Shown here: positions 1 through 60,996 of the stretch, in pieces
Layout: each line of letters starts with the position of its first letter
How positions within the stretch are numbered: the stretch's first letter is position 1
DNA from: Candidatus Woesebacteria bacterium
GTDB taxonomy: Bacteria; Patescibacteriota; Microgenomatia; UBA8517
DNA: 64,000 nt
Direction of reading: 5' to 3'
NCBI GenBank assembly: GCA_963784785.1
Contig: CAWASW010000005.1
Location: 9,247-73,246, forward strand
Position numbers and translations under genes: made by a program
The notes under the pieces: model-generated
The model's input: only the letters and a program-made list of their open reading frames with translations
Told to the model about the DNA's origin: nothing
The model's database searches: none

Positions 1-11
1 GTTTAAAAAAT

Positions 12-629
12 ATGCTTCCAGAAAGTGTTAGACCATTAGCTCGAGATGAGGAAAAAAGAATTGAGACTGTTATCAAAAACTTGACCAACATATCTGCAAA
101 GGCTGGCTTAGAAGGTGAACATTTAAATACTTCGTATGGTTATATTGGAGCAGAGCAACATTTAAAAAGATACCCAGGAGATATTATTGAAAATCATGGC
201 CCATATTATAAGAAAGACATTGCGCCAGGATTAGGTGCCTGGGGATATTTTTCAAAATCAAAGATTGAACTAAATTCATCCTTAATTGAAACTGAAAAAT
301 GGTATGCTGTGGTACAAACTTTATACTTACCAGATTGGTCACAAAGACAGCCTTATCTTCGAAATTGGTATAAATATAGAAAAGTTATGATTTTAAATAC
401 AAAAAATGGCAATGCTGTAGTTGCCGCCATTGCTGACGCTGGACCTGCAGCTTTTACAGGTAAGCATTTTGGAGGAAGTCCAGAAGTCATGGAATATCTT
501 GGAGGGTCTCGTTATAAAAAGGGAGCTGTTCTACTCTTCTTTGTTGATGACCCAGAAAATAAAGTGCCACTTGGTCCTATACAATATAATAAAGTAAACT
601 TACCTGAAGGGAGTTTGATTAATATATGA
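12..629 (+). CDS. hypothetical protein; 5' end may lie upstream of the window
   Basis: 205-aa ORF beginning at nt 12 with no in-frame stop upstream; no confident family match by eye. Confidence 0.35.
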   Translation: MLPESVRPLARDEEKRIETVIKNLTNISAKAGLEGEHLNTSYGYIGAEQHLKRYPGDIIENHGPYYKKDIAPGLGAWGYFSKSKIELNSSLIETEKWYAVVQTLYLPDWSQRQPYLRNWYKYRKVMILNTKNGNAVVAAIADAGPAAFTGKHFGGSPEVMEYLGGSRYKKGAVLLFFVDDPENKVPLGPIQYNKVNLPEGSLINI

Positions 630-940
630 GCACGTTATTTTTTGACCATTTAATTCTTGTGAATAATCTTGATAAAAAGATTAAAAAACATGCAGAGTCA
701 AATGATGAGATGCAAGAGCTATGGTCCTATGTCGAAGAAATAATCCATACGAGAGTATTAGAATGCTGTTTGGGAAATTTACCAGAAGAACATCATGAAG
801 AATTTTTGGACAAATTTCATAAAGCTCCACACGATAGGGGGCTCATTGATTATTTAAATCTAAAAATTGGAAAAGATGTCGAAAAGTTAATAAAAGTTGA
901 AATTAAAAAACTTTCCAAAGAATTACAATTATTAAAATAA
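626..940 (+). CDS. hypothetical small protein, possible partner of the downstream DUF4258-like gene
   Basis: 104-aa ORF with start/stop overlap coupling to flanking genes. Confidence 0.3.
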   Translation: MSTLFFDHLILVNNLDKKIKKHAESNDEMQELWSYVEEIIHTRVLECCLGNLPEEHHEEFLDKFHKAPHDRGLIDYLNLKIGKDVEKLIKVEIKKLSKELQLLK

Positions 941-1258
941 ATGGATCGTAATTACGGTGGAATAATATGGACCAATCATGCTTTGGCTAGGCTAACTGAA
1001 CGTGGAATTAAACAGGGTGATGCTTGGGCCGTGTGGAATAGACCAGATCAAAGTAGATATTCAAATGATAAGAACGCGTGGATTTACTATAGAACTTGGC
1101 ATGATACTAAAATTGAAGTCGTGGCAAAACAGAATGAAAAGAAAGAATGGATAATCTTATCTGTTTGGAGCAAAAAGGTTCAGATTTCAGATCACACCTC
1201 GTTATTGACAAGATTTATTAATTTGTTTAAAGTTAAATATGGCAGTAAAAAAAGTTAG
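941..1258 (+). CDS. DUF4258-like small protein (toxin-like fold)
   Basis: Motif WTNHALARLTERGI matches the H-A-x-x-R-x-x-E-R-G-I signature of DUF4258; about 100 aa. Confidence 0.5.
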   Translation: MDRNYGGIIWTNHALARLTERGIKQGDAWAVWNRPDQSRYSNDKNAWIYYRTWHDTKIEVVAKQNEKKEWIILSVWSKKVQISDHTSLLTRFINLFKVKYGSKKS

Positions 1259-1868
1259 TAAAAATCTTCTTCCTCTTCTTGCCATTACAGCATTATTTTT
1301 AAGCGTTAGCTTAGTTAACTACACACTAATCTCAGATTCGAAAGTTAAAAATACACAGAGTGTTTTGAGTGAATCTATCGAAAAAGAAGATAATATTGAA
1401 ACTAAAGATACAAAAAATGATGTTGCAAAACAAGAGGAACCTGAGAGAATTGAAGAACCAAAAAAAGTGGAGTCAAGCTCGGGCGAAATTGAAATTGAGA
1501 ATGAATCCGAAACAGCCTCAGCAGATGGAAAAATTAATAAATTCAAGTTAAAGATTAAATCAAAGACTGTAAATGGAAAAACTATTGTCGAGACCGCCTC
1601 GGGGGAGATGGAAATTGGAAATAAACCTGAAGACGCCGTAAATAATTTGGTCGACGACAACATTTTGGATACTCCAACTTCATTTGAAGCAAAGACAAGT
1701 GATAAAAATAAAGTGAAATATGAAATTCAGGGAATTGAAGTGAAAAAATTATTAGGTTTGTTTGAAATTAATTTGCCTAAGATAGTTACTGTCGATGCTG
1801 ATACGGGAGATGTCGTAAATTCTAGCCAAAGTATCTGGACAAAATTCTTAAGTCTCCTGTCAATTTAA
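1239..1868 (+). CDS. membrane-anchored acidic repeat protein, hypothetical
   Basis: N-terminal hydrophobic anchor followed by a Glu/Lys-rich low-complexity region. Confidence 0.35.
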   Translation: MAVKKVSKNLLPLLAITALFLSVSLVNYTLISDSKVKNTQSVLSESIEKEDNIETKDTKNDVAKQEEPERIEEPKKVESSSGEIEIENESETASADGKINKFKLKIKSKTVNGKTIVETASGEMEIGNKPEDAVNNLVDDNILDTPTSFEAKTSDKNKVKYEIQGIEVKKLLGLFEINLPKIVTVDADTGDVVNSSQSIWTKFLSLLSI

Positions 1869-2762
1869 ATGATTAATAATTTTTTGAGATGGTTACTGTC
1901 ATTGTTTGTCGCGACGTCTGTTGCAACTCCGTTACCAATTAATTATTTAAATTCTTTGCCATCAATGACCCCTGTAGCCACGTCAAGTCCAACAAATAGT
2001 CCTACTTCAAAACCAATTGCAACAATCAAACCTACCAGTAAACCGACTATTGTTCCTATTGTAAACAATGCTCCACCAAGTTCTGGTTATTCAAGACAAA
2101 GTGTAAAAACAGATGCTGGAATATTCATTGTAAATTTGGTTGCAGCCGATATAGGATCAACTAAAGTTATAGTCGATACTGTTTCCTCAGCAGACTGTTT
2201 TAATAATTGTCCTGCCTTGTCTCTTGGCGAGTACGTGACAAGAAATGGCGGTTGGGCGGGGGTAAATGGATCTTATTTTTGTCCGAAAGATTATCCAAGT
2301 TGTGTAGGAAAAGAAAACACATTTGATTTGCTTGTTATGAACAAGGACAAATATTATTTCAATTCTGCAAATAACATTTATAGTAATAACCCTGTAGTTG
2401 GTTTTAGAAGTGGATCAGTAAATTTTGTAACTGCTGGTAGTCAGTGGGGAAGAGATACTTCTCTAGATGGAGTACTAATGAATTATCCACTTTTGGTTTT
2501 TAATAATAATGTTGTTTTTGGTGGAGATGGCGATCCTAAAAAAGGAAGCCGTGGATCAAGAAGCTTTGTAGCCAATAAAGATAATAAGGTTTATATAGGC
2601 GTCACTCAAAATGTGACTGTTGCTGAAAATGCATTAGTAATGAAAGCTTTAGGTATGAATAACGCACTGAATCTTGATAGCGGAGATTCAACTGCATTAT
2701 GGCATGGAGGTTACAAAGTAGGTCCAGGACGAGGAATTCCTAACGCAATTATTTTTAAATGA
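1869..2762 (+). CDS. phosphodiester glycosidase (DUF2233)-like secreted protein
   Basis: Signal peptide, PT-rich linker, motifs GVNGSYF and LNLDSGDST resembling DUF2233 NGGFF / NLDGGGS. Confidence 0.5.
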   Translation: MINNFLRWLLSLFVATSVATPLPINYLNSLPSMTPVATSSPTNSPTSKPIATIKPTSKPTIVPIVNNAPPSSGYSRQSVKTDAGIFIVNLVAADIGSTKVIVDTVSSADCFNNCPALSLGEYVTRNGGWAGVNGSYFCPKDYPSCVGKENTFDLLVMNKDKYYFNSANNIYSNNPVVGFRSGSVNFVTAGSQWGRDTSLDGVLMNYPLLVFNNNVVFGGDGDPKKGSRGSRSFVANKDNKVYIGVTQNVTVAENALVMKALGMNNALNLDSGDSTALWHGGYKVGPGRGIPNAIIFK

Positions 2763-3969
2763 AGGTGATCGCTGTACCTTTTTTGTCTGCTCTTCCAGTT
2801 CTTCCAATTCTATGGACATAGGTTTCGTAATTTTCTGGTGCTTCATAATTAATGACATGGCTAACGTTTGGAATATCAAGTCCACGTGAGGCAACATCAG
2901 TTGCAATCAAGATATTAATATGACTTGATTTAAATTTATCTAGAGTTCTTAGCCTTTGGCTTTGCCTTTTGTTTCCATGAATTGCGTCTGCTTTGAATCC
3001 TCTTGCAATAAGCTCATCAGCAAGATGTTGAACACCATGTTTAGTTCTTGCAAAGATCAATACTTTATCAAACTCCTGTTGCTTCAATAAATCGTGTAAT
3101 TGTTCAATCTTTTTGTGTGGACTATCAACCTTGATAACTTCTTGCTTGACGTTTGCAGCTGTCTCTCTTGTTTTAACAGAAATTGTGACAGGATTATTAA
3201 CAAAGGCATTTAAAACAGATCTTACTTTTCCATCAATAGTGGCTGAGAAAAATAGAGATTGTCTTTTTTGTGGTAATAACGAAATCATGTATTGGATATC
3301 CTTTAAAAATCCAATATCAACCATATGGTCAGCTTCATCTAAGACGACTGAAGCACAATCATCAAGTCTTAAGGTTCTTGAATCTACGTGGTCCAAAAGT
3401 CTTCCTGGTGTACCAATTATAAAATTTGGATTTCTACGAAGTTCCTGTTTTTGTCTATTTATGTTTTCACCGCCAATACATAAAGCAGAATATATATTTA
3501 ATCCTTTTGAAAACAAATAAAATTCATCCCTAATTTGACTTGCAAGTTCTCTAGTGGGTGCAACTATAAGTACTTTTTCTGTTCTATTTTTTAACACTTT
3601 GTCTAGAAGTGGGATCAAGAACGCCGCTGTTTTACCTGTACCTGTATTTGCAATACCAATTAAATCTCTACCTTTTAAAATTTCTGGAATTGATTGATCT
3701 TGAATAGGGCTTGGGGATCCATAATGTCGATCCAATACATTGATCTGTAATTTTGCATCAATTTTAAAATCAGAAAAAGTGTGAGTTGGGATGTATGTTT
3801 CTGGAGCAATTGCTACATCTTCATTTTTTTGTGCATTAATTACACCAGTAGGGTCAAATGACTTAGCAATTCTGCCCCTTCCACCGGCACCAAAACGTCT
3901 ACCTATTGCACCATAATTGGTACGAGGTTTAAAACCGCCACGAGATCCTCCACTAAAATTTTTATACAT
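2755..3969 (-). CDS. DEAD-box ATP-dependent RNA helicase with RGG-rich tail
   Basis: Motifs GTGKTAAF, PTRELA, DEAD, SAT, HRIGRTGR; C-terminal RGG repeats. Confidence 0.9.
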   Translation of the reverse strand: MYKNFSGGSRGGFKPRTNYGAIGRRFGAGGRGRIAKSFDPTGVINAQKNEDVAIAPETYIPTHTFSDFKIDAKLQINVLDRHYGSPSPIQDQSIPEILKGRDLIGIANTGTGKTAAFLIPLLDKVLKNRTEKVLIVAPTRELASQIRDEFYLFSKGLNIYSALCIGGENINRQKQELRRNPNFIIGTPGRLLDHVDSRTLRLDDCASVVLDEADHMVDIGFLKDIQYMISLLPQKRQSLFFSATIDGKVRSVLNAFVNNPVTISVKTRETAANVKQEVIKVDSPHKKIEQLHDLLKQQEFDKVLIFARTKHGVQHLADELIARGFKADAIHGNKRQSQRLRTLDKFKSSHINILIATDVASRGLDIPNVSHVINYEAPENYETYVHRIGRTGRADKKGTAITFI

Positions 3970-4100
3970 AATTTTTTAAACTATAATAACTTGGGGAAAA
4001 ACCGAAGAAGTAATTTGTTTAGAACAGTTACAATCAGTCTTTCTTTAAATCAATATACGAATAATATCATCAATATTCTGAAATGTCAATCCCATAGTAC

Positions 4101-4358
4101 TTATTTGGTCTTTTTAACCTTCTTTGGAGCTTCTTTTTGATCCTGATTAAATAGGATATAAATAAGAGGTAAAATTCCCATAGAATTTACCAATAATAAA
4201 GCTACAAACCAGATAGATTGACCTTTCCTTGCAGATTTCCATAGAGCAAAACCTTTAAGTATTAAATTAAGAATGACTAATGGTAATAAAAATCTAAGCC
4301 ATCCACTCATCATTTGGGAGTTTCCGTAATAATTATTAAATCCACCTAAGTTCATCAT
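4101..4358 (-). CDS. small membrane protein, hypothetical
   Basis: 85 aa with two hydrophobic helices. Confidence 0.3.
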   Translation of the reverse strand: MMNLGGFNNYYGNSQMMSGWLRFLLPLVILNLILKGFALWKSARKGQSIWFVALLLVNSMGILPLIYILFNQDQKEAPKKVKKTK

Positions 4359-4363
4359 AAAAG

Positions 4364-4609
4364 TTATGTATTAATTAAACTCTCTTTGTTTTTTCTTGTC
4401 AATGACTTAATTTCTATCTCTCTTTTTAATGCTAGACTTTTGGTGTCGAAACTTTCGGTGTGAACTAATTCAAAGCTATCAAAAGATCTCATATATTTAG
4501 CAGACCTTTTGGTTTTTATCCTATGTTCATTTAGTCTTTTTTCTAAATTATTGGAAATTCCAGTATAAAGAGTGTTTCTCGATGTTCTTAAAATGTAAAC
4601 TGTATACAT
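4364..4609 (-). CDS. GIY-YIG nuclease family protein
   Basis: N-terminal VYILRT...LYTGIS...R...EH pattern typical of GIY-YIG. Confidence 0.65.
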   Translation of the reverse strand: MYTVYILRTSRNTLYTGISNNLEKRLNEHRIKTKRSAKYMRSFDSFELVHTESFDTKSLALKREIEIKSLTRKNKESLINT

Positions 4610-5535
4610 TATTTAAGTATTTGTAGAGCTTCCTTTATTGATTTTGTTTGCATAAGTGCTGCACGTAACTTGCTTGCTCCCTCAAAGTTATTGACATACA
4701 TTTTATAGAATTTTTTGATCTCGTCAGAATATTCGTTGTTACAAAGCTTTAAGTGCTTAATCAAAACTTTTTTTGATTCTTCAAATGTATGTATTTTGGC
4801 TTCTTTTTCAAAGACCCAAGGATTTAAAAAAATACCTCGCCCAATCATTACTCCGTCAACCTTGTACTGCTCATGTTTTTCTAATACCTCTTGGTAACTT
4901 TTGACATTGCCATTACCAATAATGATTGTACTGGGTGAAATTTTATTTTTTATTTCTACTGCTTTTGCAATTTCGTCCCAATGGACTTCACTTAATGATA
5001 ATTCCTTGGCAGTTCTTCCGTGAATAGATATTGCGCTAATATTTTGTTCGAGTAGAAAAGTGACCCAATCATCAGTAATTATTTTGTTTCTGCCTAATCT
5101 AGTCTTCACACTAATGGGTAACTTATTTGCTCCTTTTTTAGTTGATTTTATAATTTCTGAGACTAATAAACGATTGTCTATAAGTGCCGACCCCGCACCA
5201 ATTTTAATAACTGCCCGATCTGGACATCCTATGTTAATATCAATTCCGTCAAAACCTAAATCAGAGGCAATTTTTGCTGATTTCATAAAGTTTTCTGGAT
5301 TAGTACCCCAAATCTGTGCGACTATTGGTCTTTGCGATTTACTAAATTTAAACCTTGGAATGGTTTTTTCAAAACCACTTGAGTTTAGGGCATCTACATT
5401 TGTAAATTCAGTAAATAAGACATCGGGTTTTGGCAAATAATTTGCGACAACTTCACGAAATGCAAAATCAGTTACTCCCTCCATTGGAGCAAGGACTGTA
5501 AACGGTTTGGGTAACTTCTGCCAAAAATTACTCAT
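4609..5535 (-). CDS. dus: tRNA-dihydrouridine synthase
   Basis: LAPMEGVTDFAFR, IWG, DINIGCP motifs of the Dus TIM-barrel family. Confidence 0.85.
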   Translation of the reverse strand: MSNFWQKLPKPFTVLAPMEGVTDFAFREVVANYLPKPDVLFTEFTNVDALNSSGFEKTIPRFKFSKSQRPIVAQIWGTNPENFMKSAKIASDLGFDGIDINIGCPDRAVIKIGAGSALIDNRLLVSEIIKSTKKGANKLPISVKTRLGRNKIITDDWVTFLLEQNISAISIHGRTAKELSLSEVHWDEIAKAVEIKNKISPSTIIIGNGNVKSYQEVLEKHEQYKVDGVMIGRGIFLNPWVFEKEAKIHTFEESKKVLIKHLKLCNNEYSDEIKKFYKMYVNNFEGASKLRAALMQTKSIKEALQILK

Positions 5536-5813
5536 ATTCTGAAATGGTCATCAGTAGAAAAAAATACAAGACCTGTGACTTTCTCGTTTTCTTTGACTGA
5601 AAAAATTGTTGTAGATACAGTGATCCTTTCGGTACTTTCTTGTGGAGGTAGATGAGATTTTATAACAACACGGCTTCTATCTGAAAAAATAGGTGGGTCG
5701 GCAGGATAGGCATCGTTATAGAATTTTGACCCCTCGTCAGATAACAACACATTTTTTTTTCCTGATATGTAACTTCCAATAGTTCTAAATCCAAGTTGCT
5801 CAAGTGTTGCCAT
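5532..5813 (-). CDS. hypothetical protein
   Basis: 93-aa ORF with a stop/start overlap coupling it to dus. Confidence 0.3.
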   Translation of the reverse strand: MATLEQLGFRTIGSYISGKKNVLLSDEGSKFYNDAYPADPPIFSDRSRVVIKSHLPPQESTERITVSTTIFSVKENEKVTGLVFFSTDDHFRI

Positions 5814-5836
5814 GCCTAGATTATATAATTAATTAT

Positions 5837-6826
5837 CTAATTTAGATACTTTGTGATATTTGTCTTGTGCTCGGCATATGTTTTTGCACAATGAATTTGA
5901 CGGTTTGAGTCATGAAGATAAAAAATACAATCTGTTTCTTCAGGGTTTAATGCCGCTTCAATGAAATCAATATTTGGACTACAAATTGGAGTAGGTGGTA
6001 AATCTTCATTCTTATAACTGTTGTACGGTGAATCGCTTTGTTTTTGTTCTAAGCTTATATTTCCCCACCAACTACCATTCTCGTTTTTTCCAAGGGTGTA
6101 CTGCATTGTCGCGTCGATTTGAAGTCTCATGTCTTGATTTAACCTGTTCCAAATAATTCCTGATATTAATTTTGCATCTTCTCTTCCTGCGGCTTCTCTA
6201 GCAATTAATGATGCAATTTTTAAGCCTGTAGCCCACTTAATGTTTTTTGCTACATAGTCGCTTGCATAGGGTTCAAATTTCTCATTGAATCTATTTACAA
6301 ACCTTTGTGCAACAAATTCCACTGATTCATCAACTGGAATTAAATACGTGTCAGGATAAAACACTCCTTCATAATATTCTGTATCTTTAAACAAATTGTT
6401 CCATTTATCCAATTTGCTTTGATTCCAACCTAGTGTCGTAGCCAATTTTTCTCCAACCTGTTCTTTTCTTGGGCAATAATATATATTTACCCACTTTAAA
6501 TCTTCTTTACCTGTAATTTTTTGAATAATTTGCCAAGCATTCAGAGAAGATCTTAATTTGTACCCACCTGATTTTATCTCTTTGCCTTTAGAAAAATTAT
6601 TATATAAAAATTCGAATCCCTTTTTGTTTTTAATTATATTTTGTTGAAAAAGTGCATCCGAAAGTTTAAATGAATCTTTATCCTGAGGAATTATAAAAGT
6701 AATTATCTCTGAGGATTTATTAACTGGGCCTAAATAAGCCCAGGCAATACTCGCAGCAAAAAATAATATAGCAACAAATAAAATTAAAAATTTAACAAGT
6801 GTCTTCATTGAAGCCATATTATACAT
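5837..6826 (-). CDS. mltG: endolytic murein transglycosylase MltG (YceG-like)
   Basis: N-terminal TM anchor; conserved YceG-like C-terminal region (QIDATMQY, SPYNSY, LPPTPICSP). Confidence 0.8.
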   Translation of the reverse strand: MYNMASMKTLVKFLILFVAILFFAASIAWAYLGPVNKSSEIITFIIPQDKDSFKLSDALFQQNIIKNKKGFEFLYNNFSKGKEIKSGGYKLRSSLNAWQIIQKITGKEDLKWVNIYYCPRKEQVGEKLATTLGWNQSKLDKWNNLFKDTEYYEGVFYPDTYLIPVDESVEFVAQRFVNRFNEKFEPYASDYVAKNIKWATGLKIASLIAREAAGREDAKLISGIIWNRLNQDMRLQIDATMQYTLGKNENGSWWGNISLEQKQSDSPYNSYKNEDLPPTPICSPNIDFIEAALNPEETDCIFYLHDSNRQIHCAKTYAEHKTNITKYLN

Positions 6827-6828
6827 TG

Positions 6829-6958
6829 TCTCCGTATATATCTGCTTAAAATAAGTATTGTCCTAGAAGTGAAGATACAATTATAAATAAATTAAATTTG
6901 AGGTATCTATATCTTAAAAAACTTTGGTCTTAAAAATGTAAGCAGATGTATCCGGAGA
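6829..6958. repeat. about 130-bp unit bounded by about 20-bp inverted repeats upstream of mltG
   Basis: tctccgtatatatctgcttaaaat at 6829-6852 versus taagcagatgtatccggaga at 6938-6958 (about 18/20 complementary). Confidence 0.4.
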
Positions 6959-7142
6959 TAACTTGCGATATAAAGTATTATAACAGACAATCTTTGTTTG
7001 TCAAGACTATAGGAATTTTTTCGCTAATATCCGGCGCTCAAGAGTAAAATATAGACGTGTTAAATAACATTGCAATAAAATAATTGTAAAATAATCTTGA
7101 TGTTGGGGTTTCTAAAACTTGTACTGTAGATTTATTTAACAG

Positions 7143-7394
7143 TTATTTTCTGATTTTTATTAAAATATTTATGTAATCAATTACAAATATTACAGATATG
7201 TATACAACCGAATTTAACATCGCCACATAGATATAGTTAGGAAAAGTCATTACATATCCTATTCGTAGATGTATAGGAAACCCCATGTAGATTTGACCGC
7301 CCATAAATCCTATCGAGGTCATAGATCTTGAAAAGAGTGTAGTTATAAGTGCAATAAAAATTCCAATAATTATTTTTTTCGTGTTTTTATCCAT
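7143..7394 (-). CDS. small membrane protein, hypothetical
   Basis: 83 aa, hydrophobic. Confidence 0.3.
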   Translation of the reverse strand: MDKNTKKIIIGIFIALITTLFSRSMTSIGFMGGQIYMGFPIHLRIGYVMTFPNYIYVAMLNSVVYISVIFVIDYINILIKIRK

Positions 7395-7439
7395 ATTATT
7401 GACACCTTTGTTTAGTTGTTTTTTAGCTCGTATCTACGA

Positions 7440-8040
7440 TTTAGCTCGGACTTATTTTACAACAAATTTTTGATGTTTAGCGGAGCAACAAGGGAGGGGT
7501 TAAAGGGGAAGGAATTGTTGCGGAGCTCGGGTTCCCGCTCAGCTCCGCTACGCGGAGCCTCGCGAACACTGTATGGTCGGACTTCTCGCTCACCCCACTC
7601 CGTGGGGTTCGCTAACCCAATTGTCTAAGGAAAAGGGGGTTTGTAGTCAGTCGCTTGCGAGCGCCTGACGGAGTCCTTGCGGTATACCGCAGGGTACTCA
7701 GTGAATACCGCAAACTAGCCCTATTATAGGGCTTTTGTCCGCATTGCGGTCATGCGGTTGCGGGTGCGGTCACCGCAACGACCTAGAACTCCAAACTTGG
7801 ACATCAAACCTGTACATTTCAGTCGCAATTTGCCCTGTCGGGCAACTACCCAAGTGCTGAAAACAGAACAGGTGCTTTCGCACAGCACTTGGTTAGGAAG
7901 CTGCAGGCATAACAGAACAATTGCTCCTGAAATATCCCTTAACAGGGATCCTGCCCAACACAAAACACCCCAAAGCTACAGGGGTGTGGCTAACGCCATG
8001 TGCGTAGGCAGGAAAACAACACAAAAAAGTCATACCCTAT
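7440..8040 (+). ncRNA. candidate large structured ncRNA, class and strand unresolved
   Basis: About 600 nt with clearly higher GC than flanking DNA and no credible ORF. It holds many perfect short hairpins: GCGGAGCT..AGCTCCGC, CCCCAC-TCC-GTGGGG, AGCCCTA-TTA-TAGGGCT, GCGGTATACCGC, CCAAGTGCTG...CAGCACTTGG enclosing a UUCG-type loop, and ATCCCT-TAAC-AGGGAT. Confidence 0.3.
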
Positions 8041-8189
8041 AACCTTGACTAACTGATGAAATGATGCTAGTATTACGATACAAATTTTGAGAAATTAGAG
8101 TTCAATTTGCTACTTATAGTTTCTCAATGCTTGTTTTTTTAAGTTAGGTTTCTTGCACTTTAAAATTGCGGAATTGTTATATCCTTTTT

Positions 8190-8243
8190 AGGTGACTAAC
8201 ACTTTGGTTATTAAGACGACCTTAGTGTCCAAAGTGTTAGTCA
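8190..8243. promoter_or_regulatory. perfect 15-bp-stem hairpin (terminator/operator-like) upstream of the small membrane gene
   Basis: GTGACTAACACTTTGG ... CCAAAGTGTTAGTCAT. Confidence 0.35.
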
Positions 8244-8279
8244 TATTCAAATCATATTCAGGTTTAAAAAAGGAGAAAC

Positions 8280-8344
8280 AAAATGGTCAAGCAAAGCAAG
8301 GCATTACAAATGCATCATGATTACTACGTTCGTTTGTACAATCT
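8280..8344. repeat. 65-bp direct target duplication, left copy (IS1634-like copy 1)
   Basis: Identical to 9991..10055; contains the start codon and first 21 codons of the 108-aa gene. Confidence 0.85.
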
Positions 8345-9990
8345 CCTGACTTCGCCAATTAAGTGCCCTGAATAAAAGATAGAAGTTTGGTATTTTTAAG
8401 AAGTTGAAGTTGCTCTGTTGTTGGTTCTGTAAATTTTGATATTTCTTCATTTGAGATTTTGTCTTTGATAGTAATTTCTTTTAAGCTTGATAGAATTTGT
8501 AGTATCTTTTTTGTGCTTTTGTTGTTTTTAATTTCTGCATATCTTGTAATTGCAAGACTGGTAAAAACAATTAACATGTGGGTTAATATTTTTTCTTTGG
8601 CTGTATGAAATATTGGTCTAGCTTGGAGGTCTGATTTTGTGATTCTAAATGCCTTTTCAACTTGCCAGAGTTCTTGATATTTGGTAATTATTTCTGTGTT
8701 TGTTAATTCTAGTGCATTTGTAACATAACCTTTTAAGCCTTCAAGCTGTTCTGCTTTTTTAAGTTTAGCTTCATTTATTTTCCATTCTTTTTTAATTCCC
8801 TTTTCTTTTTTTAGAAATTTGTAGTTTTTAGTTAAGTTGCTTGGATTATTTAGTGCATAATTTGCTCTTTTTAATTGTTTTTCTCTGTCTGATTTGTCTT
8901 TTGATGCTCTTTTGACTGAGTAGTTGATAATTAAAAATTTAGTTTTTGTAAGTTCAAATCTTTCTGTAGAGCCATCTATTTTAGGTACACTAATTACTTT
9001 TTTAAAAATAGTTTTGTCTAAATTACCAAGTCTTGCTCCAACTATAAACTTTAAGTTTTCTTTTTCCAATTCATCTGTATTTTTCTCACTTAACATACCA
9101 GCATCTGCAACAAGAATAATGTCTTTCAAGGAATGCTTTTTGATGAGGTCTTTCATTACAGGAAGCATTGTGTGGCCTTCAAAAGTATTTCCTTCAAAAG
9201 CCTGCATATGAACAGGGAAACCTTGTTTTGTGACTGTTAAGGAAACAACTATTTGAGGTTGATTTGATTTTTTGTCTTTTGAAAAGCCATTTTTTCTAAA
9301 ATCATCTTCTGTAAAAGATTCATAATATAAAGTTGTGACATCAAAAAATAAAACTGAAATTACAGATGAAATATTTGTTTTGGCAAAATTAAATAACAAA
9401 TCCTCAACTATCTCTTTGTAGCCACCATCAAAGGCTTTTTTCATGCCTCTGTAGATTTCTGTAAGTGAGTATTTGTGATTTAATTTCTCTTCAAGATAAT
9501 TTCTAGTTTCAAGTTTTGAAGTTGGATTTAAAATTCTTGCAATAACAAGATCCTTAAAACAATTGTCTTTTAAGTCATTTAAACCTAAAAAATGATAGTA
9601 AAAATCAAAAAAATTGTAAGAGACAGTATCCATTACTTTGCCAAAAGTTACCTTTGAAAGTAGCTCTTTAAGTTCAGATTGATTAAATCTGTTGTCAAAA
9701 AGTGAAATTCTTCCTTCTTTGATACGACAATCATCAATGTATTTTAAGCCTAATTTTGTAAGTTCAATTAGCTCCAACTCATTTCTTGCAGTTCCAATGT
9801 GCTTCACTATTTTTCTTCTTCCTGAAACTTTTTGGGCAACTTGAACTGATGTATTAGATTTGTTTTTGACCTTTCTTAAGTACATTCAAACCTAATTTTA
9901 GCAAATAAAACAGTAAGTGCCCTAAAGTACATAAAAATACAAACAATTAGCCTCAAGAAGTTACATAAAAACTAGGTTGGCGAAGTCAGG
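8345..9990 (-). mobile_element. IS1634-family-like insertion sequence (IS4 superfamily), copy 1, 1646 bp
   Basis: 14-bp terminal inverted repeats CCTGACTTCGCCAA / TTGGCGAAGTCAGG; 508-aa transposase; long flanking direct repeat. Confidence 0.8.
8359..9885 (-). CDS. IS1634-family-like DDE transposase
   Basis: 508 aa; N-terminus MYLRKVKNKSNTSVQVAQKV...IVKHIGTA resembles IS1634-family transposase N-termini; three near-identical copies in the window (one K/E difference). Confidence 0.8.
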   Translation of the reverse strand: MYLRKVKNKSNTSVQVAQKVSGRRKIVKHIGTARNELELIELTKLGLKYIDDCRIKEGRISLFDNRFNQSELKELLSKVTFGKVMDTVSYNFFDFYYHFLGLNDLKDNCFKDLVIARILNPTSKLETRNYLEEKLNHKYSLTEIYRGMKKAFDGGYKEIVEDLLFNFAKTNISSVISVLFFDVTTLYYESFTEDDFRKNGFSKDKKSNQPQIVVSLTVTKQGFPVHMQAFEGNTFEGHTMLPVMKDLIKKHSLKDIILVADAGMLSEKNTDELEKENLKFIVGARLGNLDKTIFKKVISVPKIDGSTERFELTKTKFLIINYSVKRASKDKSDREKQLKRANYALNNPSNLTKNYKFLKKEKGIKKEWKINEAKLKKAEQLEGLKGYVTNALELTNTEIITKYQELWQVEKAFRITKSDLQARPIFHTAKEKILTHMLIVFTSLAITRYAEIKNNKSTKKILQILSSLKEITIKDKISNEEISKFTEPTTEQLQLLKNTKLLSFIQGT

Positions 9991-10055
9991 AAAATGGTCA
10001 AGCAAAGCAAGGCATTACAAATGCATCATGATTACTACGTTCGTTTGTACAATCT
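9991..10055. repeat. 65-bp direct target duplication, right copy (IS copy 1)
   Basis: Identical to 8280..8344. Confidence 0.85.
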
Positions 10056-10320
10056 GATGGAAGGTAATCTCTTACCTGCAGACAGAGAAAACTACAACGC
10101 GGCTATGATATGCGAACGTCAAGGACTTGTCAAACCGTTGCCACAGCCCTGGTATGTAAAAGCTGGGCTTTTGATCGGCATGACAATTGTCTTTTTCGGT
10201 TTGATGCTACTCACATCGCGCTTCGGCGGCTTTTTGGGAGGATTCCAAACACTTGCCTTCTCATTTGAAGGATTGCTTTGGCTTTTGACCTGCGCCGCCA
10301 TCGTGTTCAATCGCAATTAA
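9994..10320 (+). CDS. small two-TM membrane protein; GC-richer than the neighbourhood, probably acquired
   Basis: 108 aa; first 21 codons lie in the IS target duplication, so the ORF is intact but separated from its original upstream region. Confidence 0.5.
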   Translation: MVKQSKALQMHHDYYVRLYNLMEGNLLPADRENYNAAMICERQGLVKPLPQPWYVKAGLLIGMTIVFFGLMLLTSRFGGFLGGFQTLAFSFEGLLWLLTCAAIVFNRN

Positions 10321-10336
10321 ATTCTGCAATAAAGTT

Positions 10337-10395
10337 CAAGAAACACCCCTCGGTGATAATTAGCCAAAAGCTAAAAATCAAAATACCGAGGGTTG
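10337..10395 (+). terminator. long-stem hairpin downstream of the 108-aa gene
   Basis: GAAACACCCCTCGGT ... ACCGAGGGTTGTTTC. Confidence 0.35.
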
Positions 10396-10477
10396 TTTCA
10401 TTTATAAGGCTATTTTAAAAACTTCCATATAAATAATAGTTATTCTTTTAGCCTTTGTTGATTAATGCTAAAATCTC

Positions 10478-11221
10478 ATGGTGATGAACAAAAAGAGAAT
10501 ATATGTAATTGGACCATCAGGAAGTGGAAAAACGTATCTTGCTAAAGTAATCTCAAAGCATTTTAACATTCCACATACAAACCTGGATTATGTTTTTTTT
10601 GATCACAAAGTATCTAAAAGTCGTGATGAAGTATCAGATGAAGAGTGGATGAGAAGATTAAATAAGTTAATTGAAGAAGATGATTGGGTTATTGAAGATA
10701 CCGTTGCATAAACGGTCACTTGTTTAGCCTTAAATGATTTGTTGTTTTTCGTTAAAATAATAACACTTTCGTCCGATTACTCGGACAATGCTGAAATTGG
10801 TTGTAGAAGCGTTTACTTAGTGAAACTACCTTTTTAGGCCGAAAGTATAGTAAAATCAGTGTGTTTTAGGAGACCGAAATGTAACGGTCTCGTTATTGAA
10901 GGAGTCAATCCAATTAATGAAGTTTTTGAAATTGCAGATAGAATTATTTTTTTAAGACTAAATATAGTTGAAACGTTAATAAGCCAGTGGGGACGATATC
11001 TAACGGATGAGGTGCAACGCAGAGAACATGGTTTTATCAATAACTTAAAATTATCCAAATATCTTATTAGACAGCACGTAGAAGAAGAAAATTTATCAAA
11101 ATCGGAAGACCCTAAATATTTTAGAATAAGAAAAGTTGATAGAATTTTAAAAAAGTATTCAAACAAAACTGTGATTTTAAACAGCAGAAACGAAGTTAAT
11201 AAATTTATTGAAACTTTATAA
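10478..11221 (+). pseudogene. P-loop NTPase/kinase-like gene (adenylate-kinase-like fold) split by a 195-bp MITE
   Basis: N-part ends ...DWVIED-TVA-stop inside the MITE; C-part resumes ...EGVNPINEVFEIADRIIFL after the MITE; Walker A GPSGSGKT; 9-bp TSD GTTATTGAA on both sides. Confidence 0.65.
10697..10891 (+). mobile_element. 195-bp MITE, copy 1
   Basis: Termini GATACCGTTGCATAAACGGTCAC ... GGAGACCGAAATGTAACGGTCTC (imperfect TIRs, each a hairpin); 9-bp TSD GTTATTGAA at 10688-10696 and 10892-10900. Confidence 0.75.
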
Positions 11222-11223
11222 AT

Positions 11224-11724
11224 ATGGACACTGAAATTAAAGAGCAACTACTTCCTCAAATTGAACTGGTCCCATATAATTCTAACAATCATTTACAAAA
11301 ACTAACTAATTGGCTTCAGAACAAAGACTTAATGTATGGATGGGGAATGGATACTTTTGAAAACAGCGAGGAAGTAAATAAATGGGCAAGTGATTCAACA
11401 CGTGTGGTACTAATGGTGAAAGATTTTGAAAATGATGAAATTGTTGGTATGGTAAATTTTTACGATTGGGATAAAGAAAAGCAAACTGCAAGTAGAGGAA
11501 CTTTAATTGATCCTAAATTTCAGAATAGAGGTTATGGAAAAGCATCCATCTTGCTTTCCAATAACTATGCTTTTGATGAAATGAAACTTAAAAGAATTGA
11601 ACTCTATGTAGAAGGTTATAATGAGGCATCAAGGCATATAACTGAAAAGTTAGGTTACAAATTTGATAGATATAACCCTAAAAAAGATAGATACTACTAC
11701 TTTATGGATAGTCCAAAGCAATAA
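11224..11724 (+). CDS. GNAT family N-acetyltransferase
   Basis: Acetyl-CoA binding motif QNRGYGKAS; RimJ/RimL-like length. Confidence 0.65.
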   Translation: MDTEIKEQLLPQIELVPYNSNNHLQKLTNWLQNKDLMYGWGMDTFENSEEVNKWASDSTRVVLMVKDFENDEIVGMVNFYDWDKEKQTASRGTLIDPKFQNRGYGKASILLSNNYAFDEMKLKRIELYVEGYNEASRHITEKLGYKFDRYNPKKDRYYYFMDSPKQ

Positions 11725-11822
11725 TTTTATTTTACAGAGTCGTGTCTGACGCCCATGTGCATGGACAGGAGAACACCGCCTGCGGGCGTCTGGTACGAAT
11801 ATTTTAGCTTTAAATCCATTTA

Positions 11823-11917
11823 GCTGGCGGTTTACGAAAAATGTCGAACTTCACTTTGTTAGCTCGGCCTTCGGCCTCGCTTGCTCCAGCGCGGCTCCCC
11901 CACCCGCCGCGCCTCCG
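11823..11917. repeat. 95-bp GC-rich inverted repeat, left arm
   Basis: Exact reverse complement of 12968..13062. Confidence 0.85.
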
Positions 11918-11967
11918 CTATTTTTTGCGCGCGATTTTAGGATCAAATATTATAGGGGCGATAAAAT

Positions 11968-12828
11968 CTAATCAACATATTCTATTGTAGTCCAGGCACC
12001 ATTTGCAACAATGGTCGCTGTACCAGATGATCCAGCCCGATCACACATCACTTCGTAATACTCGTTGCTACTGGTTGTCTGAATAAAGACTATTGATGTA
12101 TTTGTTCCGTTGTCATCAGTGTCATTTCTCGAATAGGAATATGTCCCGCTCGGGGTATTATAAGTAGTTCCATTTAAACGCACTCTACAGAGAATATTAG
12201 CTCGCGTACCCGTATTATTGTCACTGCTTACGACGTATGTGAGTTTATACCATCCGGCATTTACTAAATAAACTCTTGAATTGTTCGTGGAAGTGCTATG
12301 AGTAAAATATGTGGTATTGACATAACTTTGTGAATCCCAGCTTATCGCAGTAGGAGTAACGGTATTGATGTCCACCCCCCCCGTAGAATCATAGACTTGT
12401 GTAAACTTTCTTGAAAAGTTGATGTCAGTACCACAAACCCAAGAAGAGCTGCTTGTACTCCATTTTAGGACTTGACCATCGGAACAAGTTGTTAAAAGTG
12501 ATACAGAACTTCCCGAATCCCCTTTGTCTCCCTTGTCACCCTTGTCACCTTTAGTACCAGAATCACCTTTAGCACCAGAATCACCTTTAGCACCAGAATC
12601 ACCTTTAGCACTCGTACTTCCCTTACTCCCTGTATTACCTGCAAGACCTGGAACTCCGGAGGCTTCTTGTATTGCTTGAGGTGTAGTTTTAGCAGTAGGC
12701 GTAGTTGATTCTGGTGATGTAGCTCCTTTTTTCATTGAAAAAAAACTCACTGAGGCGTATACGGCAACAAGCGACCCTAAAAGCAAAAGGATTAGACGGT
12801 ATTTATTCATGCTGTAAATAGTATACAA
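11968..12828 (-). CDS. collagen-like (G-x-y) triple-helix repeat surface protein with non-collagen C-terminal domain (BclA/C1q-like architecture)
   Basis: Signal/TM N-terminus, GDSGAKGDSGAKGDSGTKGDKGDKGDKGDSG repeats, about 170-aa Ser/Thr/Asn-rich C-terminal domain. Confidence 0.65.
   Translation of the reverse strand: MYTIYSMNKYRLILLLLGSLVAVYASVSFFSMKKGATSPESTTPTAKTTPQAIQEASGVPGLAGNTGSKGSTSAKGDSGAKGDSGAKGDSGTKGDKGDKGDKGDSGSSVSLLTTCSDGQVLKWSTSSSSWVCGTDINFSRKFTQVYDSTGGVDINTVTPTAISWDSQSYVNTTYFTHSTSTNNSRVYLVNAGWYKLTYVVSSDNNTGTRANILCRVRLNGTTYNTPSGTYSYSRNDTDDNGTNTSIVFIQTTSSNEYYEVMCDRAGSSGTATIVANGAWTTIEYVD
12530..12625. repeat. tandem 18-bp (6-codon GDSGAK) repeats inside the collagen-like gene
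   Basis: accagaatcacctttagc repeated about 3.5 times. Confidence 0.7.
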
Positions 12829-12967
12829 AAAAAGGGGGTAAATGTCATTGATTAAGCTCTAAGATACTAGTACAACCAGAGCGGCCATTTGAGGTTTAGT
12901 AAAAGTTCTTTAAAATTTTTGCGTTTTTTTATTCCGATTTCATCGGGATTGTTCGAGCCGACAGTTT

Positions 12968-13062
12968 CGGAGGCGCGGCGGGTGGGGGAGCCGCGCTGGA
13001 GCAAGCGAGGCCGAAGGCCGAGCTAACAAAGTGAAGTTCGACATTTTTCGTAAACCGCCAGC
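12968..13062. repeat. 95-bp GC-rich inverted repeat, right arm
   Basis: Exact reverse complement of 11823..11917. Confidence 0.85.
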
Positions 13063-13254
13063 CAGTAAGAATTGGAAAGAGGTCGGGAGGTAGCGCTTTC
13101 CGCGCCCGCCTCCGCGGAAAGCGCGTCAAATCCGCCTTTTTTGAAACTTGCGGACAGCCGCCGGAAAAAGAAGAAAAAAAACGCAAAAATTAGCCTTTCT
13201 CGAAAGAAAGGCACGAGCTACTGCTCGTTAAAGAACTTTTAGGAAAACAAAACA

Positions 13255-13410
13255 ATGATTAAATACATCGCATATTGCAGAAAATCTACTGATGAACCCG
13301 ACAGACAAATCTTGTCTATTGAGGCGCAAGTTGCGGAACTTGAAGAACACGCCGCAAAAGAAAACTTGAAGATAGTGTCTTTTATTACCGAAAGTAAAAC
13401 CGCCAAAGAG
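13255..13410 (+). pseudogene. serine recombinase (large-serine-recombinase-like) N-terminal remnant truncated by a MITE
   Basis: IKYIAYCRKSTDE...LSIEAQ matches the catalytic Ser/Arg motif of serine recombinases; ORF runs into the MITE after 52 codons. Confidence 0.6.
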
Positions 13411-13605
13411 GAGACCGTTACATTTCGGTCTCCTAAAACACACTGATTTTACTATACTTTCGGCCTAAAAAGGTAGTTTCACTAAGTAAACGCTTCTACA
13501 ACCAATTTCAGCATTGTCCGAGTAATCGGACGAAAGTGTTATTATTTTAACGAAAAACAACAAATCATTTAAGGCTAAACAAGTGACCGTTTATGCAACG
13601 GTATC
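13411..13605 (-). mobile_element. 195-bp MITE, copy 2 (inverted orientation)
   Basis: Same 195-bp element; truncates the recombinase gene; lies 6 nt from the 3' end of tRNA-Gln; no clear TSD. Confidence 0.7.
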
Positions 13606-13611
13606 CGTCGT

Positions 13612-13685
13612 TGGCTACGGGTCAGGGACTCGGACCCCGATAAGCAGATCCAGAATCTGCTGTCCTGCCATTAGACGAACCCGTA
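13612..13685 (-). tRNA. tRNA-Gln (anticodon CUG), CCA encoded
   Basis: Manual cloverleaf: acceptor TACGGGT/ACCCGTA with U1-A72 and G73, D-arm GTCT-AATGGCA-GGAC, anticodon arm GCAGA-TTCTGGA-TCTGC, T-arm CGGGG-TCCGAGT-CCCTG (unusual C at position 55). Confidence 0.6.
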
Positions 13686-14283: not shown

Positions 14284-14949
14284 ATGATACGAAAGACTTC
14301 AAAAATTTTATCTAACTTAGAATATTTTGTAAAAGGTAATAACCCAAAACTTCTAATACATTGTGGTACTTATGGAGATGAATACGACGTTGTGAAACAC
14401 GTAGAGAATGCTGTCATAAAGTATGAGGAACAATTGCCAGATTTTGTTTTTGTGCCGATTGTTTCTCCGTCTGCTGTCAAATTGAGAACTCGAATTAACG
14501 ATAACGGAAAAGATTTGAATAGAATATTTTTCTCAGATTCAACTGATCCTGAGGTTTTGGCAAACATAGAAATTATCGGTGAAAACAAATATGACTTGTT
14601 TGTCAGTTTCCATGAGGATTTTGAATTTCCTGATTATTACATCTATGATGAGGGTTTTACTAATCTAAAACAGAATATGATTCTAAATCATAATTCACAA
14701 ATTTCAAAATTAGGATTTACTCTATTCAACGGCATAGATGACCCAATTCTGAATAACGTCTTTTTAAATGGGTACAAAAAAATAGTAATTAACAAAGATA
14801 CAAGAAATAATGGAATGATTACAAGTTGGATGTTATCTGAAGGAAAGGTACTTGATACATTAAATCCTGAAATACCTATGAATTTAGATTCAAATTCAAA
14901 GAAGAAAATTATAGATACATTTTTTGAAAATGTTTTGTGCTATTCTTAA
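14284..14949 (+). CDS. hypothetical protein (weak resemblance to M14/desuccinylase-like hydrolases)
   Basis: 221-aa ORF; HCGTYGDEYD loosely HGG-HGNE-like. Confidence 0.35.
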   Translation: MIRKTSKILSNLEYFVKGNNPKLLIHCGTYGDEYDVVKHVENAVIKYEEQLPDFVFVPIVSPSAVKLRTRINDNGKDLNRIFFSDSTDPEVLANIEIIGENKYDLFVSFHEDFEFPDYYIYDEGFTNLKQNMILNHNSQISKLGFTLFNGIDDPILNNVFLNGYKKIVINKDTRNNGMITSWMLSEGKVLDTLNPEIPMNLDSNSKKKIIDTFFENVLCYS

Positions 14950-15469
14950 ATCTTCTGCACATTAATCCCCAGCCTTTAGGCTGGTGGAGCAAGTATAGTT
15001 TGTGGCATACTTGAGGGAAATGTTAAAGTACTGGCATGGTGCACACACAAAGCACAGAATTATGATTCATTTGGTATTTTTACCAAAATACAGAAAAAGG
15101 ATATTACGTGGCAAAGTAGCTACAAGACTTAAAGACTTATTCTTCAAAGCATGTGAGGTTAACAACTGGTGGATTGAAGAAATTACAATATTGCATGATC
15201 ATGTACATATGCTTATACAAATCCAACCAAACTTGTCCATCTCAAAAGTTGTTAACCAACTGAAAGGTGGTTCATCAAGAATCTTAAGGAAAGAATTTCC
15301 AGAGTTAGAAGAATTTCTTTGGGGTGACTCATTCTGGTCTGATGGCTACTTTGCAGAATCAGTGGGTGCAACAAGTTTCATCCAGGTTAAAAAATACATT
15401 AAAAATCAAGTGGAAAGTATGCCACAGAAGGGGTAAAACCATGGCATTTATGCCATGTGTTTTTTATTG
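14949..15469 (+). mobile_element. IS200/IS605-family element (tnpA only), copy 1, 521 bp
   Basis: Subterminal hairpins CCAGCC-TTTA-GGCTGG (left) and CCATGGCAT-TT-ATGCCATGG (right); identical to copies at 26863 and 37072. Confidence 0.8.
15002..15436 (+). CDS. tnpA: IS200/IS605 family Y1 (HUH) transposase TnpA
   Basis: 144 aa; HuH motif HVHMLIQ and catalytic Tyr region SDGYFAESVG. Confidence 0.85.
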   Translation: MAYLREMLKYWHGAHTKHRIMIHLVFLPKYRKRILRGKVATRLKDLFFKACEVNNWWIEEITILHDHVHMLIQIQPNLSISKVVNQLKGGSSRILRKEFPELEEFLWGDSFWSDGYFAESVGATSFIQVKKYIKNQVESMPQKG

Positions 15470-19887: not shown

Positions 19888-19945
19888 TTTTTTGTCCTTT
19901 GTGACGCTTTAGTCGTAGTCTCAAGCGGAGCTAAGCGAAGCGAAG

Positions 19946-21133: not shown

Positions 21134-21143
21134 CAGCGAAGTG

Positions 21144-21338
21144 GAGACCGTTACATTTCGGTCTCCTAAAACACACTGATTTTACTATACTTTCGGCCTA
21201 AAAAGGTAGTTTCACTAAGTAAACGCTTCTACAACCAATTTCAGCATTGTCCGAGTAATCGGACGAAAGTGTTATTATTTTAACGAAAAACAACAAATCA
21301 TTTAAGGCTAAACAAGTGACCGTTTATGCAACGGTATC
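21144..21338 (-). mobile_element. 195-bp MITE, copy 3
   Basis: Complete copy with 9-bp TSD AGCGAAGTG (21135-21143 and 21339-21347); abuts the IS1595-like right end and the tRNA-Glu 3' end. Confidence 0.75.
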
Positions 21339-21346
21339 AGCGAAGT

Positions 21347-21417
21347 GACGCTTATGAGAGTCGGACTCATATTTCTTGGATGAGAACCAAGTGTCCTAGC
21401 CGTTAGACGAAAGCGCC
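21347..21417 (-). tRNA. tRNA-Glu (anticodon CUC)
   Basis: Manual cloverleaf: acceptor GGCGCTT/AAGCGTC (one G-U), D-arm GTCT-AACGGCTA-GGAC, anticodon arm CTTGG-TTCTCAT-CCAAG, T-arm ATGAG-TCCGACT-CTCAT (C55); MITE TSD overlaps the discriminator. Confidence 0.5.
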
Positions 21418-26690: not shown

Positions 26691-26862
26691 CCTGATGAAT
26701 AAAAAAATATTGTTTGAAAATCTTGTTATAGTGAGAAAATTGAATTTGCTGTCGTCGATAGAAAAAGCAAAAGACGCGAGAGACAATGCTCCGGATGCAA
26801 CTGAAAGTCATTCTGATACTAGGAGAAATCAGGCAGAAAAACTTGTGGTTGCGTTAGAAATT

Positions 26863-39723: not shown

Positions 39724-39903
39724 ACGGTCACTTGTTTAGCCTTAAATGATTTGTTGTTTTTCGTTAAAATAATAACACTTTCGTCCGATTACTCGGACAA
39801 TGCTGAAATTGGTTGTAGAAGCGTTTACTTAGTGAAACTACCTTTTTAGGCCGAAAGTATAGTAAAATCAGTGTGTTTTAGGAGACCGAAATGTAACGGT
39901 CTC
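39709..39903 (+). mobile_element. 195-bp MITE, copy 4
   Basis: 9-bp TSD AGAGGATGG at 39700-39708 and 39904-39912. Confidence 0.75.
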
Positions 39904-60897: not shown

Positions 60898-60924
60898 TAA
60901 AATTTGTTTGGGCGCTCTCTAATG

Positions 60925-60987: not shown

Positions 60988-60996
60988 TTTTTAGAA

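Follow-up and report, generated by a model that had tools for sequence, protein, structure and literature searches.

We describe here a block of about 560 nt, at positions 7469 to ~8030 of a stretch of Candidatus Woesebacteria DNA, that is GC-rich, non-coding and dense in hairpins, and which we regard as a plausible but as yet unproven candidate for a large structured RNA of a new kind. The host belongs to the Microgenomates within the candidate phyla radiation (CPR), and the stretch analysed, referred to here as the window, is 64,000 nt long and supplies all coordinates. It is best read as a non-coding element, rich in structure and specific to this lineage, that occupies the far end of an island resembling a degraded prophage. 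The reading that we prefer, and hold tentatively as somewhat short of an even chance, is that it specifies a minus-strand structured RNA of this mobile island, acting either as a stand-alone molecule or as a fold-back leader of the adjacent gene for a small membrane protein of 83 amino acids (aa).

Composition, coding status and folding of the block

The GC content is 0.505 at 7410–8049 and reaches 0.585 in individual 200-nt tiles, against 0.336 for the whole window, so that a first-pass annotation of this DNA was right to place the GC content far above that of the surroundings. The ~600-nt block that it delimited at 7440–8040 is real, although its limits have to be corrected to 7469 and ~8030, between which the tile GC is about 0.50–0.58. 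The left limit (7468/7469) is the point at which an identical contig of the Logan collection stops, and the right limit (~8031) is where homology begins to a gene module known from Hainich groundwater that encodes a 108-aa protein; because of both limits we consider the block an entity separate from the 108-aa gene module. The Logan contig (L031, from ERR12037365, an independent assembly of 20.4 kb) is 100% identical to window positions 1–7468 and ends exactly at 7468, which points either to heterogeneity among strains or to additional copies at the junction, and none of the island genes to the right of 7468 is on record for the ERR12037365 collection. The 108-aa open reading frame (ORF; 9994–10320) encodes a protein with two transmembrane segments whose sole homologue among 5.8 billion proteins (P0001, 64% identity) comes from short Hainich contigs aligning with the window from ~8031 on. 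The shared sequence comprises a promoter (TTGAC-17-TGnTAGTAT, 8045–8073, with a canonical extended -10), a leader of ~210 nt and the ORF, and in place of the block the Hainich contig has unrelated sequence together with a tRNA-Pro(CGG) that is read from the opposite strand. The block had been placed between the small membrane gene and the first copy of an insertion sequence (IS); the membrane gene does lie directly beside it, but ~310 nt actually separate it from the IS, and these hold the conserved promoter and its leader as well as the initial 62 nt of the 108-aa gene.

The block lacks any recognisable coding remnant. All six reading frames are interrupted, leaving ORFs of 70, 96, 79, 41 and 46 aa and open frames of 70–107 codons. 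The two longest ORFs, which are the two that were tested, have no Pfam match, and the joined six-frame peptides (≥22 aa) gave zero matches at E≤10 against the 5.8 billion proteins, a search that is blind where gene callers call no ORF, as is the case throughout the source contig. In exact-protein look-ups the block ORFs and most neighbouring genes were not on record. The earlier view that these ORFs are spurious is thereby supported, and the outcome that the first-pass annotation had named as contrary to an RNA gene, a coding fragment or an rRNA remnant, was not encountered with Pfam, the 5.8 billion proteins, Rfam or ARAGORN. The block is single-copy within the window, with only weak end similarities, and the similarity of other GC-rich non-coding pieces of the island to it is not significant.

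Every helix quoted in the first-pass annotation is present, with a single amendment: the loop within the 10-bp helix, described as of UUCG type, is in fact UUUC when the plus strand is read and GAAA when the minus strand is. The block and its principal helices are as follows.

7469–8030, minus strand favoured: GC-rich, non-coding, hairpin-dense core, candidate structured RNA (from GC content, hairpin excess and folding z-scores)
7520–7549: helix GCGGAGCT/AGCTCCGC
7593–7607: hairpin CCCCAC-TCC-GTGGGG
7679–7690: self-complementary GCGGTATACCGC
7717–7733: hairpin AGCCCTA-TTA-TAGGGCT
7850–7892: helix CCAAGTGCTG/CAGCACTTGG
7934–7949: hairpin ATCCCT-TAAC-AGGGAT
7965–7987: helix ACACCCC/GGGGTGT

The structure in the block exceeds chance, and this observation is real and statistically robust. 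Perfect Watson-Crick hairpins of at least 6 bp number eight in the 552-nt core at 7469–8020, against a mean of 0.9 (maximum 4) in shuffled sequences, and those of at least 5 bp number 12 against 3.2 (loops of 3–9 nt; 120 dinucleotide-preserving shuffles). With 120 shuffles, the minimum free energy (MFE) of 7396–8040 has a z-score of -8.5 for the minus strand and of -5.4 for the plus strand; with 20 shuffles the corresponding scores are -11.2 and -6.6. The block tile is also the most extreme of 170 tiles of 250 nt across the window (minus-strand z = -7.0; background -0.4 ± 1.5). GC-rich coding islands elsewhere in the window (10080–10329, 11726–12649 and 60170–60889) have z-scores between -2.3 and +4.5, and since these islands are without excess folding, GC content alone is not the cause of the signal. 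With the hairpin excess, the folding z-scores and the strand-specific signals described below, the earlier impression of a structured-RNA-like signature in an AT-rich genome holds up well. The second-strongest folding outlier of the window lies far from the block at 60751–61000 (plus-strand z = -5.3) and holds a 12-bp hairpin, CCTCACGGTCTC...GAGATCGTGAGGG, followed by the T-run ATTTTT; this is probably the terminator of a GC-rich 243-aa orphan ORF (60166–60897) just to the left of IS copy 3.

The block belongs to no catalogued RNA family. All 4227 Rfam families were compared by cmscan with the window at gathering thresholds, at which only two tRNAs are found, and with 7300–8200 (901 nt) at E≤10 with relaxed filters, where only noise appears (mir-3, PVT1 and similar, 14–20 bits). 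At E≤10 there is no match in this region to RNaseP_bact_a/b, the signal recognition particle (SRP) RNA, tmRNA, 6S, OLE, GOLLD, ROOL, HEARO or raiA, nor to Intron_gpI, Intron_gpII or group-II-D1D4; of the tRNA and tmRNA genes sought by ARAGORN, the window has only tRNA-Gln (13612–13685) and tRNA-Glu (21345–21417), and the block has none. The Rfam search that the first-pass annotation had recommended (RNase P, SRP, tmRNA, OLE, GOLLD, ROOL, HEARO, raiA) was thus run and returned no match, and its more specific suggestions fall with it. The strings ACAGAAC, GGAAAAG and GGAAGCUGC, whose order had been likened to RNase P RNA, are chance resemblances because no Rfam match accompanies them; the likeness to SRP domain IV finds no counterpart in a Bacteria_small_SRP match; and an RNA of the OLE/GOLLD/ROOL kind is not indicated by any covariance model at E≤10. 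Bacterial RNase P RNA was rejected for want of a covariance-model match and because the block has no counterpart in the ~20 kb compared from each of 24 CPR relatives, and SRP RNA was rejected with GGAAGCTGC at 7896–7904 standing alone. The probability is close to negligible that the block is a divergent housekeeping RNA (RNase P, SRP, tmRNA, 6S) or a member of a known large class (OLE, GOLLD, ROOL, HEARO, raiA, a group I or II intron): all that speaks for it are the short strings ACAGAAC (present twice), GGAAAAG and GGAAGCTGC, whereas neither Rfam nor ARAGORN recognises it and, unlike a housekeeping gene, it is missing at the syntenic locus of 24 of 24 relatives.

Searches for homologues were similarly negative. 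BLASTN (word 11) found only a 48-nt chance match outside the block among phages and no match among plasmids, and six exact-word scans (five in viral contigs and one in JGI metagenome contigs) found only chance 18–21-mers with no extended similarity. The 24 related CPR loci, retrieved via YceG (44–74% amino-acid identity) with ~20 kb each, have no similarity to the block, the syntenic site included. These searches were narrow (exact words or gene calls), and "orphan" is used here to mean not found rather than proven absent.

Strand-specific signals and the predicted minus-strand fold

Three strand-specific signals, drawn from folding models and loop sequences, favour an RNA read from the minus strand. 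The minus strand is predicted to fold 16 kcal/mol better than the plus strand, against a null difference of -0.2 ± 6.9, with one of 120 shuffles as extreme. The minus-strand ensemble is well defined (centroid -245 versus MFE -254 kcal/mol), whereas that of the plus strand is diffuse (-167 versus -239 kcal/mol). Loops closed by G...A on the minus strand are found in six of the 12 perfect hairpins (GUA, GGA, GACA, GUUA, GACCGCA and GUGCGAA) where the chance is 0.076 per loop, giving a binomial p of ~1e-4, or 2e-4 for either strand, although the test is somewhat optimistic in that some of the 12 hairpins overlap. The hairpin with the GUGCGAA loop contains a GAAA tetraloop hairpin on the same strand. 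The strand asymmetry speaks against palindromes acting at the level of DNA only, because a cluster of these should be strand-symmetric.

The elements of the predicted minus-strand fold, from the 5' end of the RNA, are listed here with the flanking features that bear on it.

8064–8093, minus strand: weak candidate promoter TTCTCA-18-TAGCAT, 8 of 12 positions, found in the relaxed scan only
8014–8032, minus strand: 5' strand of the predicted closing helix P1, pairing with 7400–7421 in both the MFE and centroid structures
7949–8013, minus strand: predicted 5' domain, with a 14-bp helix around the GGC-GUUA-GCC and ACACCCC...GGGGUGU hairpins and then a U-rich tract
7983–7968, minus strand: terminator-like site (U-rich tract after the GGGGUGU hairpin), from the terminator scan
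7947–7936, minus strand: small GUUA hairpin of the predicted fold
7814–7935, minus strand: predicted long irregular arm of ~45 bp with 6 G-U pairs, capped near the GAAA tetraloop hairpin
7469–7808, minus strand: predicted multi-branched domain, closed by the 8-bp helix 7808–7801/7469–7476
7400–7421, minus strand: 3' strand of the predicted P1, reading ...ACAAAGGTGTCAATAATATG and containing the Shine-Dalgarno sequence AAAGGUG of the 83-aa ORF
7143–7394, minus strand: gene for the 83-aa small membrane protein, directly downstream of the block, with its ATG at 7394

In the model P1 has 18 bp (8032–8014 with 7421–7400) and a mean pair probability of 0.95–0.97, and only 1.3% of control segment pairs with the same spacing across the window match its duplex energy of -16.9 kcal/mol. 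The arm consists of five predicted helices (7935–7927/7822–7814, 7924–7911/7839–7825, 7904–7899/7847–7842, 7892–7884/7858–7850 and 7879–7873/7865–7859), with pair probabilities of 0.90–0.97 except in the innermost, where the value is 0.55. The multi-branched domain includes an 18-bp helix (7783–7765/7691–7672), and the pair probabilities are 0.85 for its closing helix and 0.84 for the 18-bp helix.

We envisage a minus-strand transcript of ~600–640 nt that would extend from roughly 8035–8057 down to ~7400 and fold into a closed multi-domain structure, in which P1 would pair the 5' end of the RNA with a segment containing the ribosome-binding site of the 83-aa gene. Such a transcript could be a stand-alone large RNA of the mobile element, with a genomic context like that of ROOL and GOLLD, or it could be a giant leader, blocking translation of the small membrane protein until the RNA is processed or refolded. 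Judged from homologues of the same length at 33–42% identity, the 83-aa ORF is a real gene family, and the interval between the block and this gene shows no intrinsic terminator. The further proposal that the block is the first known representative of a new ~600-nt class of minus-strand mobile-element RNAs of the CPR, functionally analogous to ROOL and GOLLD, or else a fold-back leader of unprecedented length, is one that we consider unlikely.

Several observations weigh against a minus-strand RNA and should be set beside these signals. No convincing promoter was found on either strand, and the candidate at 8064–8093 failed the stricter scan. The local stems are nearly all perfect Watson-Crick helices, which fits DNA-level palindromes too, and P1 is AU-rich with a significance of ~1% that is uncorrected for the choice of boundaries. 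Other parts of the island are also GC-rich (0.40–0.49) and above the host, and the GC content of the block may partly reflect foreign origin. No homologue of the block was recovered in the phage and plasmid BLAST searches, the word scans or the 24 CPR loci, and hence these provide no evidence of covariation or conservation. As for a leader in particular, the one homologue locus examined (P0004, locus L035) has an unrelated region upstream of its 83-aa gene, and the break of the Logan contig at 7468 points to a recent insertion as the event that brought the block and the 83-aa gene together, which argues against a co-evolved leader.

Genomic setting and competing explanations

The block sits in the interval between tRNA-Gln and yceG, which is 6.8 kb long in the window (6827–13611) and is 6 nt in one relative (L004, 5620–5625), 1.5 kb in a second (L003, 8516–10000) and 6.3 kb in a third (L001, 3666–10000), with unrelated cargo in each. 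Because both the gap size and the cargo vary among relatives, we regard this site as an integration hotspot. The block occupies the end of the island farthest from tRNA-Gln, and no copy of the tRNA end, as an attachment-site repeat, is present at the block edges. The island otherwise contains a collagen-repeat gene, a serine recombinase fragment, a GNAT gene, a split kinase-like gene and the IS-split 108-aa gene. The collagen-repeat gene (11968–12828) is tail-fibre-like (phrog_366, E = 6e-14) and is flanked by 95-nt perfect inverted repeats (11823–11917/12968–13062), and the truncated N-terminus of a serine recombinase (resolvase) lies at 13255–13405 (PF00239, E = 3e-6); from their sequences, 11823–13062 and 13255–13405 are arranged like a Gin/Hin-type invertible segment that has lost its invertase to a miniature inverted-repeat transposable element (MITE).

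In such a setting it is possible, if rather unlikely, that the block is simply foreign non-coding DNA, either a palindrome-rich control, recombination, packaging or replication region of a decayed prophage-like element, or decaying mobile DNA from a GC-richer donor. The GC content of the rest of the island (0.40–0.49), the absence of the block from relatives at the same locus, its orphan status in all searches made, the short, perfect and locally symmetric hairpins, the wealth of mobile elements in the area (IS copies, MITE-like repeats and an IS200-like TnpA) and the break of the identical Logan contig at the left edge are all consistent with an origin of this kind. However, the strand asymmetry in folding energy and the G...A loop bias are unexpected for DNA-level palindromes, the palindromes all differ in sequence and include no iterons, REP-like (repetitive extragenic palindrome) family or tandem repeats, and Pfam and phrog scans reveal no relaxase, Rep or terminase gene nearby. 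A decayed protein-coding gene or an rRNA or tRNA remnant would account for open frames of 70–107 codons in a GC-rich stretch, but is very improbable given that all six frames are interrupted without a Pfam match or a peptide match among the 5.8 billion proteins, that no rRNA or tRNA match is found, and that the GC-rich coding DNA of the window is without excess folding.

The remaining explanations concern RNAs other than a minus-strand transcript. We consider it improbable that the block encodes one or two plus-strand RNAs, for example a small RNA (sRNA) of ~270 nt ending at the hairpin 7717–7733 plus UUUUG, and a second at 7745–8020, upstream of the 108-aa gene promoter. There is a perfect -35 hexamer (TTGACA, 7399–7404), but no matching -10 follows it; the hairpin at 7717–7741 is matched by the terminator part of an sRNA model, but its T-run was not accepted in the terminator scan. 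Folding is strong on the plus strand too (z = -5.4) and a U-G pair in the helix at 7675–7694 exists on this strand only, whereas its diffuse ensemble (centroid -167 versus MFE -239), the energy asymmetry and the loop bias all favour the minus strand. The first-pass suggestion of two adjacent RNAs drew only on the same weak plus-strand hairpin at 7717–7741 and was not sustained by the terminator scan. A stem-loop-like array of TIGR (tandem interspaced guide RNA) guides, or some other RNA-guided system, is extremely improbable. TIGR systems do occur in CPR bacteria and phages, with arrays of variable palindromes (PMC12045711), but the block has no tandem or periodic units and no repeated box motifs, and its loops are mostly of 3–4 nt and not of the dual-spacer form; on these grounds a TIGR array was rejected. 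A Pfam scan of 27 of the larger ORFs between 1 and ~26,700 and of the 243-aa ORF (60166–60897), several of which had no Pfam match at all, likewise found no match to Nop/Tas, Cas, IscB, TnpB or reverse transcriptase. We retain the minus-strand RNA as the preferred reading, with the reservations given above.

Several features of the neighbouring elements are worth recording in their own right. The IS at 8344–9991 parts the promoter and leader of the 108-aa gene, within 8045–8344, from its intact ORF, within 9991–10400, and the leader hairpin just before the ribosome-binding site (8192–8243) is swapped in one Hainich contig (L026, 330–900) for a different inverted repeat at the same place. At either end of a second Hainich contig (L025, 1–47 and 1071–1125) lies one half of a tRNA-Pro(CGG)-like gene, the two halves sharing a terminal overlap of 29 nt, and the 1-kb module that carries the 108-aa gene homologue may have two flanking tRNA-Pro copies, or be circular, or be tandem. 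Compensatory changes in the anticodon stem and the T stem distinguish the tRNAs of L025 and L026 (45–119), and a terminator-like sequence, CGCCTCCGCT-ATTTTTT...GCGATTTT, is common to L026 and window positions 11900–11935.

The IS is present in three 100% identical copies of 1648 nt (8344–9991, 40016–41663 in inverted orientation, and 61162–62809) encoding a 508-aa DDE_Tnp_1 transposase, and these are flanked by unusually long direct repeats of 65 nt (8280–8344/9991–10055), 134 nt (39884–40017/41662–41795) and 166 nt (60997–61162/62809–62974) respectively. Long and variable target duplications, of 8–514 bp, are described for IS1634 and IS1549 (PMC2266710), and by its sequence features the IS looks like an active element of this kind in a CPR genome. 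A MITE-like repeat of ~200 nt, with hairpins at both ends and 9–10-bp target duplications (GTTATTGAAG; AGAGGATGG), is found at 10697–10898, 13404–13605, 21139–21338 and 39709–39903, with a diverged copy at 19944–20026; one copy splits the kinase/AAA-like gene at 10478–11221, and two lie exactly 6 nt past the 3' ends of tRNA-Gln and tRNA-Glu. Identical 300-nt repeats in three copies (14946–15245, 26861–27160 and 37070–37369) lie over 144-aa ORFs, of which the one scanned is an IS200-like Y1 transposase (PF01797, E = 9e-41), and a fragment of a Mutator-family transposase is present at 20208–21104. For a small CPR genome this is a very high load of mobile elements. We also note the 8-mer TTAGCTCG, which occurs at 36, 7423, 7441, 11859, 12197 and 13019 (minus strand), six times against 0.84 expected and with none of 100 shuffles reaching six; five of the six occurrences are within the island or at its edge.

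Comparison with known systems

Fold-back pairing of the 5' end with the ribosome-binding site is a feature of type I toxin mRNAs, including the fbi element of hok/Sok, tisB, zorO and aapA1. The predicted long-range helix P1 is similar in that it would pair the 5' end with the Shine-Dalgarno sequence of a gene for a small hydrophobic membrane protein. A leader of ~640 nt would, however, be several times longer than any fold-back example known to us, and the 83-aa protein differs from these toxins in having several hydrophobic segments; moreover, the homologue locus examined is without such a leader and no antitoxin sRNA was identified.

TIGR arrays consist of tandem units in which two spacers of 8–12 nt are flanked by box C/D motifs, and the associated Tas is a Nop-domain protein (Faure et al. 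2025, PMC12045711). The block recalls such arrays as a series of different palindromes in a CPR or phage context, but it departs from them in having neither unit periodicity, nor box C/D-like repeats, nor dual-spacer loops, and there is no Tas match among the scanned ORFs nearby.

The use of GC-rich intergenic regions as indicators of non-coding RNAs in AT-rich genomes is an established approach (that behind PMC5737381), and the block fits it as a sharp GC island (0.50–0.58 versus 0.34) in a non-coding gap with strong predicted structure. It differs in that a candidate usually has to show covariation among its homologues to gain acceptance, whereas no homologue of the block was found, and in that the neighbouring island genes are also GC-rich, so that GC content alone is not diagnostic. 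Were the block inert foreign DNA, it would serve as a warning: in an AT-rich genome, a GC island with perfect hairpins does not suffice for calling an RNA gene where the larger island around it shares the high GC content.

Large structured bacterial RNAs are rare, and OLE, ROOL and GOLLD still have no clear function. To our knowledge no large structured RNA is known from the CPR (Patescibacteria), whose mobile elements are poorly explored. ROOL RNAs average 581 nt, and both GOLLD and ROOL are often found near tRNAs and in prophages (Weinberg et al. 2017, PMC5737381). The block, non-coding and ~560–640 nt long, is comparable to these RNAs in that its predicted fold has many helices and multi-stem junctions, and it too lies in a prophage-like region near a tRNA gene, although context is not membership. 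It differs from them in having no covariance-model match at E≤10 and no family of homologues recovered in the searches made, and in residing in a CPR bacterium whereas their hosts are Firmicutes or Fusobacteria; the resemblance, as an analogy, is thus one of context and size only. If the block is transcribed and conserved, it would represent an additional class of large RNAs, one tied to the mobile DNA of episymbiotic bacteria.

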